A DNA stretch of 49,036 nucleotides, from IMG/VR virus record IMGVR_UViG_2531839476_000015, positions 1 to 49,036 of that record, one strand, 5' to 3'. Positions 9,679 to 10,023 of the stretch are shown in pieces; positions within the stretch are counted from its first letter, which is position 1, and every line of letters begins with the position of its first letter. The notes beneath the pieces are model-generated. The model was not told where the DNA came from, ran no database searches, and was given only the letters and a program-made list of their open reading frames with translations. Both the position numbers and the translations under genes were made by a program. This DNA is from a virus. Its lineage: Duplodnaviria > Heunggongvirae > Uroviricota > Caudoviricetes.

Positions 9679-9698
9679 ACCCGGCTCGGTGGCCGGGT
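9679..9698 (-). terminator. Bidirectional-looking intrinsic terminator (CCCGGC-tcggtg-GCCGGG, A run before and T run after)
   Basis: Perfect 6-bp stem flanked by A/T runs, downstream of the 44-aa ORF; approximate coordinates. Confidence 0.45.
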
Positions 9699-9715
9699 TT
9701 GAGATTTAGTTATTT

Positions 9716-9850
9716 TCAGCAGCTCGGATAAGAGCGGAAGTGCTGACGAACATGTTCGAGCTCACCGAAACGTATGCGGCAGTAACTGCGCACATAAACC
9801 GGCTTGTCGTGTTCGTAGATGAAGTCATCGCGATTAACATCGTGAGCCAT
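9716..9850 (-). CDS. Candidate small protein (44 aa, MAHDVNRDDFIYEHDKPVYVRSYCRIRFGELEHVRQHFRSYPSC)
   Basis: Below ORF-track cut-off; strong SD (cAGGAGAAaagctATG); bracketed by terminator hairpins; His/Cys content hints at metal binding; uncertain. Confidence 0.35.
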   Translation of the reverse strand: MAHDVNRDDFIYEHDKPVYVRSYCRIRFGELEHVRQHFRSYPSC

Positions 9851-10003
9851 AGCTTTTCTCCTGTTTTTGTATACAGCCTGTTTACCCGAACAGGTTGTAG
9901 TTTGTTGGGAGAACCGCTATCCTTGGCTTGCGGTTGCCAAGGGTGTAGCGGTAGGTAATCCTCCATACACTTCGGAAATACTGGATATATTTCCGACCCA
10001 AAA

Positions 10004-10023
10004 AGCCCCGTTCCCTCGGGGCT
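10004..10023 (-). terminator. Intrinsic terminator (AGCCCCG-ttccct-CGGGGCT then T tract) directly after the 63-aa gene stop
   Basis: 7-bp GC-rich stem, T run on minus strand immediately 3' of the TAA at 10024-10026; also terminator-like on the plus strand. Confidence 0.6.

Follow-up and report, generated by a model that had tools for sequence, protein, structure and literature searches.

In hok mRNA, the ribosome-binding site is hidden by the fold of the transcript, and an upstream element competes for the same strand (the tac/ucb/dcb model). A similar choice is made in leaders that sequester the Shine-Dalgarno (SD) sequence, such as that of rpoS, which is opened by small RNAs (sRNAs) or proteins, and in the platforms of translational riboswitches, where an anti-SD strand pairs with either the SD or an upstream partner. 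In the isrK-orf45-anrP locus of the Salmonella prophage Gifsy-1, transcription reads through a terminator into a 45-codon open reading frame (ORF); the RNA takes up two alternative structures, one inactive and one active, its short terminated isoform activates the long one in trans, and orf45 couples translation to anrP (PMC4825925). Here, we analyze a unit of hairpins and a 44-amino-acid (aa) ORF, designated gene B, at positions 9679 to 10023 of a 49,036-nucleotide (nt) stretch of viral DNA (IMG/VR record IMGVR_UViG_2531839476_000015, Caudoviricetes; hereafter, the window), which represents a lambdoid prophage with lambda-type immunity. On balance, we favor the view that the unit is a minus-strand expression module that opens with a terminator hairpin (P1), continues with about 150 nt of structured leader (P2 to P4) and gene B, and closes with a second terminator, the leader gating the translation of gene B.

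By analogy, the nearest functional counterpart that we found would be IsrK/orf45 of Gifsy-1, with which the unit shares its setting in a prophage RNA, a read-through terminator, a small ORF, and two alternative folds. However, the two are not homologous: the Rfam model of isrK (RF01394) misses the window leader at E values of up to 1 and also misses five related loci. Moreover, IsrK resides in the late region near antQ, whereas the leader described here lies in the immunity region; no short terminated isoform is evident here, and the small ORF is the last gene before the terminator. With hok mRNA, the unit has in common a small-gene mRNA that would be silenced by its fold and an upstream competitor for the same strand, but the gene B product is not hydrophobic, no antisense RNA promoter was found, Rfam yielded no match, and no 5'-3' fold-back was seen in the window. 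Unlike rpoS-type leaders and riboswitches, finally, the leader is portable and attached to interchangeable small genes, with no ligand, sRNA, or protein partner assigned to it; an arrangement resembling an expression platform is present, and no known aptamer matches in Rfam.

A small coding gene behind a series of hairpins

The elements of the unit, in the 5'-to-3' order of the minus strand, are as follows.

10002-10025, minus strand: P1, terminator hairpin AAAGCCCCG/CGGGGCUUU, the 5' boundary of the module; overlaps the stop codon of the upstream gene, gene A, by 2 nt (10024-10025)
9973-9995, minus strand: P2, hairpin CGGAAAUA/UAUUUCCG (z score, -3.8)
9960-9964, minus strand: SD mimic GGAGG within the conserved sequence GUGUAUGGAGG; can pair with the anti-SD block, lengthening P3
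9913-9952, minus strand: P3, basal helix ACCGCUA/UAGCGGU (9946-9952 with 9913-9919) plus a hypervariable apical hairpin, CCUUGGC/GCCAAGG (9921-9942)
9908-9913, minus strand: anti-SD block UUCUCC, immediately 3' of P3; its partner is the SD in the closed fold and the upstream GGAGG in the open fold
9872-9899, minus strand: P4, hairpin UACAA-CCUGUU-CGGGUA-AACAGG-CUGUA with a G-rich loop (z score, -2.8)
9856-9861, minus strand: SD GGAGAA, 5 nt before the AUG, as read from the sequence
9716-9850, minus strand: gene B, 44 aa, MAHDVNRDDFIYEHDKPVYVRSYCRIRFGELEHVRQHFRSYPSC, from the ORF list
9677-9700, minus strand: 3' terminator on the OL side, stem CCCGGC/GCCGGG, then UUUUCUUU on the minus strand (free energy, -15.4 kcal/mol; z score, -4.0)

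A sequence-only reading had described two terminators, at least three internal hairpins, and a 44-aa ORF with a strong SD in this interval, and sequence and folding place all of them where that reading did. The three internal hairpins (9872-9899, 9921-9942, and 9973-9995) have z scores of -2.8 to -3.9, better than those of nearly all shuffled sequences. The form of an intrinsic terminator, a G+C-rich stem followed by a U-tract on the minus strand, is found at both 9677-9700 and 10002-10025, and termination is predicted there; the hairpin at 9677-9700 was missed by a simple terminator scan but confirmed by folding, and a terminator of the same type lies 3' of the small ORF in every related locus. 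P1 is bidirectional in form: U5 comes after it when the minus strand is read, and UUUAUUCUUUU when the plus strand is read.

The same reading had suggested a small protein gene on the minus strand, and comparative evidence bears this out: judged by its sequence, the 44-aa ORF is a protein-coding gene. Across 12 relatives with 64-98% protein identity to the window's B, 39 of 42 third codon positions were variable, whereas only 13 first and 10 second positions were. In each comparison made, there were more synonymous than nonsynonymous codon changes, and changes were mostly synonymous across relatives from Escherichia coli, Klebsiella, Symbiopectobacterium, and metagenomes. In addition, the protein matches phrog_21154 over its full length (E value, 1.9e-31; residues 1-44 on profile positions 1-47 of 47), a family without an annotated function. 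Two overlapping ORFs in other frames, of 86 aa (9706-9966, minus strand) and 72 aa (9740-9958, plus strand), were rejected as spurious genes. Variation by codon position agrees with the 44-aa frame, and the 86-aa ORF would start at an AUG within the SD mimic that Klebsiella-type leaders lack.

A word-indexed search recovered 3 proteins related to B, and an exhaustive search recovered 12; a scan of viral contigs extended the family to proteins of 30-49 aa on 63 contigs. Eleven residues are invariant among proteins 39-93% identical to the window's B, forming the core V.V..Y.R.R...E.VR.H.R..P. The protein is hydrophilic and basic and lacks a membrane helix, and its AlphaFold2 model shows a long beta-hairpin formed by strands 19-27 and 30-38, with mean predicted local distance difference test (pLDDT) values of 91-95 for the blocks of residues 21-40. 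No match was found in Pfam, NCBIfam, or PADLOC; a sequence search of solved structures gave only a chance-level zinc-finger resemblance (E value, 0.34), and a fold search gave no meaningful match. Both the RefSeq pipeline and the submitters of phage SH2026Stx1 annotated B as a hypothetical protein.

Distant homologues of B (34-37 aa) were also seen directly 3' of CptIN-family type III toxin genes in three other loci (L019, 939-1178; L069, 1453-1683; L070, 1445-1675), each homologue being bracketed by a conserved 28-nt inverted repeat (82-89% complementary). Two repeats of about 46 nt lie upstream of the toxin gene in L019 and L069, as expected, and none lies there in L070.

A fold conserved on the strand of gene B

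The 191-nt stretch that contains the hairpins folds well on either strand (z scores of -6.7 for the minus and -6.9 for the plus strand; none of 200 shuffled sequences was as good). In all, 63 distinct versions of the leader were collected, and conservation of the fold was tested on 17 or 40 distinct leaders. The RNAalifold consensus of 17 distinct leaders comprises P1, the base of P3, an extended P4, and a helix between UCUCC and the SD that closes a three-way junction around P3 and P4. P2 lies outside this consensus and was seen in individual folds; it is present in the minimum free energy (MFE) structure of 17/17 leaders, built from at least six different stem sequences. On the consensus, 93.1% of cells were paired (85.9 ± 0.9% after shuffling), 39 cells carried double changes (15.9 after shuffling), and the covariation score was 0.235 (0.113 after shuffling), with none of 500 shuffles reaching any of these values.

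Checked across homologous prophages, both fold and ORF are conserved and pairs covary. P1 has one covarying pair (CG in 8/40 leaders and UA in 32/40), the basal pairs of P3 vary as CG/UA/GC/UG and GC/AU/GU, and the base of the P4 stem varies as CG/GC/AU/UG, among both the 17 and the 40 leaders. Nearly all lineages have their own sequence in P2 and in the apical hairpin of P3, and both still fold; between the diverged spacers of the Klebsiella type and the window, each hairpin is kept by changes on both sides.

The conserved helices contain 17 G-U cells and no A-C cells when read on the minus strand, that is, in the sense of the ORF. This indicates that selection acts on the ORF-sense strand, since an RNA made from the plus strand would carry 17 mismatches. 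No promoter-like site was found at the scan threshold on either strand inside 9700-10025, and the known transcription of the region (from pRM and the gene A promoter) is all on the minus strand. From the sequence evidence, the reading that suits the hairpins best is that of a cis-acting 5' leader to gene B on the minus strand.

A search of the window from 8500 to 12500 against Rfam 15, including isrK, sok, and prophage sRNAs and leaders, gave no match at E values of up to 1. In five related loci, no Rfam family matched over the whole leader, the lone overlap being a subthreshold isrJ match (27.8 versus 37 bits) to the P1/P2 part of one locus, L116. Indeed, we found no Rfam family, Pfam family, or paper that covers the leader or its payloads. 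Our verdict is that the leader is a new family of structured cis-regulatory RNA, of a familiar kind, that is joined to swappable small genes.

Three further features of the leader were seen in some lineages. A pseudoknot between the G-rich loop of P4 and an upstream ACCC looked good by eye in four sequences, was absent in others, and was dropped. In a sublineage linked to ImmA (e.g., L123, L129, L131, L135, and L139), the loops of P1 and P2 carry the same 7-10 nt, in four versions that change in step (GCGCTAAC, CTCTAAC, TTGACGC, and CTGAGAA); this sharing, at alignment columns 10-20 and 45-56, is one of identity, not complementarity, and does not occur in the window's own leader. A Symbiopectobacterium locus (L015) carries, in place of the P3 apical hairpin, a 29-nt duplicate of the beginning of ORF B, CATGATGTAAATCGCGACGATTTCATCTA (3124-3152 and 3245-3273).

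Predicted occlusion of the SD and an alternative fold

In the predicted ensemble of the window RNA, the SD is paired with a probability above 0.9. Forcing SD and AUG open would cost 9.4 kcal/mol, compared with 4.1 ± 2.3 kcal/mol for shuffled leaders placed before the same ORF start, 1 in 100 of which reached so high a value. The MFE structure of the forced-open RNA has a lengthened P3, in which GGAGG (9960-9964) pairs with UCUCC. Because a MAFFT alignment misplaces P2, the mimic, and the SD region between lineages, these elements were judged by per-sequence folds and duplex energies, not by alignment columns.

Both pairings of the anti-SD block have comparative support. The helix with the SD is present in the MFE structure and in the RNAalifold consensus, two of its pairs show six double changes each, and native duplexes of anti-SD and SD are stronger than swapped ones in lineages with a B payload. 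Duplexes of the mimic with the anti-SD block reach -12 to -17 kcal/mol in 15/17 lineages and are mostly better than nonnative combinations. The mimic, moreover, resembles the SD region lineage by lineage: ACAGGUUAAC occurs twice in the Klebsiella type, and the window has GGAGG and GGAGA. Opening the SD would cost 4-9 kcal/mol in the window and its close relatives, whose SD is thus predicted to be strongly closed. Among 40 distinct leaders, the MFE structure pairs at least four bases of the SD region with the anti-SD block in 26, and the median opening cost is 4.6 kcal/mol. As modeled, SD hiding is common among the leaders and not universal.

A portable leader with interchangeable payloads

Beyond what the sequence-only reading had proposed, the unit is present elsewhere as a portable module, and one of its helices pairs with the SD. 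A pattern scan of IMG/VR returned 93 stretches, 78 of which were confirmed as leaders by a sequence profile. This profile has a single match in the window (10025-9837, minus strand) and none at the distant stand-alone homologues of B. The 63 distinct leaders precede two unrelated families of small proteins, one of them zinc-ribbon-like, and follow gene A, an ImmA/IrrE-type peptidase gene, a gene for a third protein, or no ORF. A third small-protein family (phrog_33859) stands behind a more diverged structured spacer in another gene A lineage.

In Klebsiella prophages of a nonlambdoid type, gene A, a spacer of about 170 nt, and the small gene occur in the same order. In metagenome loci whose gene A shows 39-42% identity, the leader is retained and stands before an unrelated zinc-ribbon-like ORF (about 45 aa), and one locus contains, in series, gene A, a leader, a first payload, a second leader, a second payload, and a terminator. 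Among complete E. coli genomes, a query of leader plus ORF matched 52/5,426 (about 1%), of which the six full-length matches and one other were inspected; apart from the full-length matches, the leader was found in distant mode in 46 genomes, the one inspected being O55:H7 strain RM12579. There, the leader directly follows a helix-turn-helix and ImmA/IrrE peptidase gene pair, without gene A, and is followed by an unannotated zinc-ribbon ORF and a terminator; it has the same architecture as in the window, with many compensating changes.

L123, 2670-2818 (NC_017656.1, about 1738577-1738725): zinc-ribbon-like ORF of RM12579, 49 aa, MAMGTCRKCGCPCEIIFRYSVCVDGVMRHAKKGKPFPIPLCSCSGKHAA; no coding sequence called by RefSeq

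Relatives of this ORF were seen in many viral contigs. Since the leader occurs with other payloads and without gene A, it is tied to neither B nor gene A, and the interval from P1 to the second terminator is the portable module.

A model of gated translation

Upstream of P1, the window contains the following features.

10024-10556, minus strand: gene A, phrog_2602 (E value, 5e-79); 177 aa when intact
10563-10583, minus strand: 5' hairpin with the gene A SD, 3' of the gene A promoter
10585-10613, minus strand: putative gene A promoter, sigma-70-like; -35 TTGATT at 10608-10613, 17-nt spacer, -10 TAGTAT at 10585-10590

In the model that we favor, transcripts would enter from upstream, from the gene A promoter and probably also from pRM of the prophage repressor operon. 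P1 would act as an attenuator that lets a fraction continue, and only transcripts that read through P1 would carry the leader and gene B. On these, the UCUCC 3' of P3 would pair with the SD and close a three-way junction with P3 and P4, leaving the ribosome-binding site hidden and B unmade. If the upstream GGAGG takes UCUCC instead, P3 would become longer and the ribosome-binding site free. The two folds may act as a switch, B being made only when the RNA shifts from closed to open; a trans-acting RNA, an RNA-binding protein, processing, and folding kinetics are candidate openers. A payload kept in this way would seem to need tight repression, either because it harms the cell or because it acts only at a particular moment, and the leader probably keeps its small proteins untranslated until some trigger.

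Support for such a module comes from the coding gene, the fold conserved on the minus strand, the predicted and covarying SD pairing, and the portability of the leader. Several points weigh against it. Transcription of the leader, translation of B, and repression are all deduced from the DNA itself, and attenuation at P1 would not be general: a U-tract follows P1 in the window's lineage and is lacking in the Klebsiella type. The closed and open folds are nearly isoenergetic in the Klebsiella type (1.3-1.9 kcal/mol), and several leaders with a zinc-ribbon payload do not favor a closed SD (1.2-3.1 kcal/mol). Given that SD hiding is not uniform, another constraint must keep P2, P3, and P4 conserved. 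Furthermore, the SD helix drops out of the consensus in a 40-sequence MAFFT alignment, in which the SD region aligns poorly; the slid-partner controls (29-48% of cells paired) are inflated by the fact that the tested structure was derived from the same sequences; and the shuffle control takes no account of relatedness among the leaders.

As a candidate RNA family, the leader adds a structured RNA supported by covariation to the poorly catalogued regulatory RNAs of temperate enterobacterial phages, and it flags small proteins missed by annotation, such as the zinc-ribbon payload of RM12579. It may serve as a compact, transferable translational gate. Given that it precedes small proteins of three or more unrelated kinds and occupies slots that are expressed in lysogens and known to hold defense genes, these proteins are good candidates for exclusion, host-control, or switch functions. 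A bolder version, to which we give little credence, is that the portable RNA gate responds to one specific event by letting out a burst of a small protein, which binds nucleic acid and brings either the cell or the invader to a halt. The event might be that another phage infects the cell, that the prophage is induced, or that an RNA-binding protein of the host is lost. If true, this would define RNA-triggered prophage exclusion or takeover modules with interchangeable small effectors, unlike known toxin-antitoxin types in having no antisense RNA, protein antitoxin, or repeat RNA.

Alternative explanations

The conservation of P2, P3, and P4 even where the SD is predicted to be open would also be explained if the leader were chiefly a functional RNA in itself, a protein platform or sponge or a dual-function RNA acting in trans, with SD hiding secondary and restricted to some lineages. 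Sequence conservation extends to unpaired blocks (the G-rich loop of P4, GUGUAUGGAG, and AUAGCGGUU), the matching P1 and P2 loops of one sublineage (7-10 nt, four covarying versions) suggest a common ligand, and GGA-containing motifs, which we take to resemble CsrA sites, recur in loops and at the SD. On the other hand, neither a promoter nor an internal terminator was found, at the scan threshold, that would yield an RNA of its own, the leader always lies directly before a small ORF with the SD at a fixed distance, and in the lineage of the window, changes in the SD region are matched by changes in the anti-SD block. We therefore consider this explanation unlikely, although it deserves to be kept in mind.

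Less probable again is a system resembling type I toxin-antitoxin loci, with a toxic B, an mRNA silenced by its fold as in hok, and an antisense RNA from the plus strand. The pairing logic of mimic, anti-SD, and SD does resemble, as we take it, that of tac, ucb, and dcb in hok mRNA; the leader is indeed, by prediction and covariation, a structured mRNA that hides its ribosome-binding site; P4 and P1 look like terminators on the plus strand; and distant homologues of B adjoin CptIN toxins. Yet B, a hydrophilic, basic protein with a predicted beta-hairpin and no membrane helix, is not the hydrophobic toxin of such systems. Moreover, no plus-strand promoter was found at the scan threshold (a weak one is possible), the G-U asymmetry puts selection on the sense strand only, and neither sok nor another family of antitoxin RNAs was matched in Rfam. 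As for type III systems such as CptIN/ToxIN, neither A nor B, the two proteins scanned, matched CptIN or any other NCBIfam family, and no tandem repeats were noticed in the unit on reading the sequence, without use of a repeat-finding tool.

We find it equally hard, if not slightly harder, to believe that A and B are partner proteins, either toxin and antitoxin or sensor and effector, and that the leader only sets their ratio. The two genes stay next to each other in many Enterobacterales while A ranges from 37 to 100% identity, and the cI-N interval is known as a hotspot at which prophages carry defense genes (PMC8585504). However, leader and small ORF occur without gene A in 46 E. coli genomes (one inspected) and in many viral contigs, the payload family shows no correspondence with the N-terminal type of gene A, gene A is frameshifted here and in a second assembly while B is intact, and PADLOC found neither protein. 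Its absence from many copies and its disruption here next to an intact B imply that gene A is not needed, which argues against a classical A-B toxin-antitoxin pair.

The hairpins might instead act as DNA, namely, as a folded single-strand recombination site for small-gene cassettes, similar to integron attC. This is very improbable: payloads are indeed swapped between conserved flanks, one locus has tandem units, and the N-terminal domain of the gene A protein weakly resembles an integrase N-terminal domain (Foldseek E value, 0.7; probability, 0.84), but no recombinase catalytic domain lies nearby, the only integrase adjoining the unit, across the window and related loci, is an unrelated one of phage type in L016, one conserved helix pairs and covaries with the SD, which is sensible only for RNA, and the conserved flanks suffice for exchange by ordinary homologous recombination. 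Finally, the independent Hfq-type sRNA from the plus strand that the sequence-only reading had entertained is scarcely credible, for although that strand folds equally well (z score, -6.9) and ends in a hairpin and a T-rich run, its RNA would turn the 17 G-U cells (with no A-C cells on the ORF-sense strand) into A-C mismatches, no promoter-like site was found inside the unit at the scan threshold, and the coding gene and leader on the minus strand account for the region.

Gene A

In the window, gene A is split into ORFs of 121 and 63 aa by the loss of one base in a homopolymer (T-run 10229-10235, plus strand). An intact allele has one extra A and is otherwise 100% identical, and the same truncated 121-aa ORF occurs in an IMG/VR contig; the 1-nt loss might mark a slippage site or a tract subject to phase variation, or it might be an error of sequencing. 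The gene A family is confined to Enterobacterales. Its promoter scores 8/12, below the scan threshold, and was assigned from conservation only, the motif recurring 5' of gene A at loci of E. coli, Klebsiella, and Symbiopectobacterium as well as at others; it is the likely source of the transcripts that would read through P1. An internal promoter at the end of gene A, from which transcription would start at P1, was rejected for its poor match to the consensus. Within 10563-10640 (minus strand), two conserved GATC sites flank the -35 element, one in the palindrome AACGATCGTT, which lies about 10 nt 5' of it, and the other in the spacer, as CGATCA; this hints at Dam-methylation-sensitive or operator control.

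Apart from its variable N-terminal domain, a four-helix domain with the weak integrase resemblance mentioned above, the gene A protein has a basic linker and a C-terminal part of about 45 residues (KTFELPIPLRGDLIVTIGNLPRDLTKDEAKRIS.IVESFA) that is almost invariant but poorly modeled by AlphaFold2; folding on a partner would account for this combination. A sequence search of solved structures gave no match for gene A. The idea that gene A is an RNA-binding regulator of the leader was dropped, as the leader is found without gene A.

The rex slot and the terminator next to OL

The immunity region of the window also contains the following features.

8894-9217, minus strand: N
9488 (-35) and 9460 (end of -10), minus strand: pL
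10746-11087, minus strand: DUF3024 gene, just downstream of cI
11097-11810, minus strand: cI
11911, plus strand: cro

Between cI and N, according to the literature, lies a hotspot of mosaic diversity in which abortive-infection genes are often found (PMC8585504). In place of lambda rexA and rexB, the window carries the DUF3024 gene, gene A, and the hairpin/ORF unit (9679-10023). Like rexAB and other moron genes between cI and N, these lie downstream of the repressor gene, with a tImm-like terminator at the end by OL; in contrast, the proteins of the unit have no similarity to RexA or RexB, and only the neighboring DUF3024 gene in this slot matches PADLOC, in which its product belongs to a candidate defense family (PDC-S43; E value, 1.3e-41). 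This product also matches phrog_3467, and the literature searched held no mention of DUF3024 or the RefSeq accessions.

To our knowledge, lambda has nothing comparable to the unit between rexB and OL, as had been claimed before. This is indirectly supported by a search with 9640-10060, in which similarity to other lambdoid phages was confined to the initial approximately 60 nt (9640-9699; terminator and OL side) and the remainder matched three phage records. The 3' terminator of the module presumably occupies the position of lambda tImm next to OL/pL, with a stem common to both. Its loop and flank match the Klebsiella module, to which we take them to be closer than to lambda tImm. Within the interval 9640-9700, this terminator looks like a recombination joint through which the module entered the rex slot. 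The similarity to lambdoid phages stops at about 9699, at the 3' terminator of the module.

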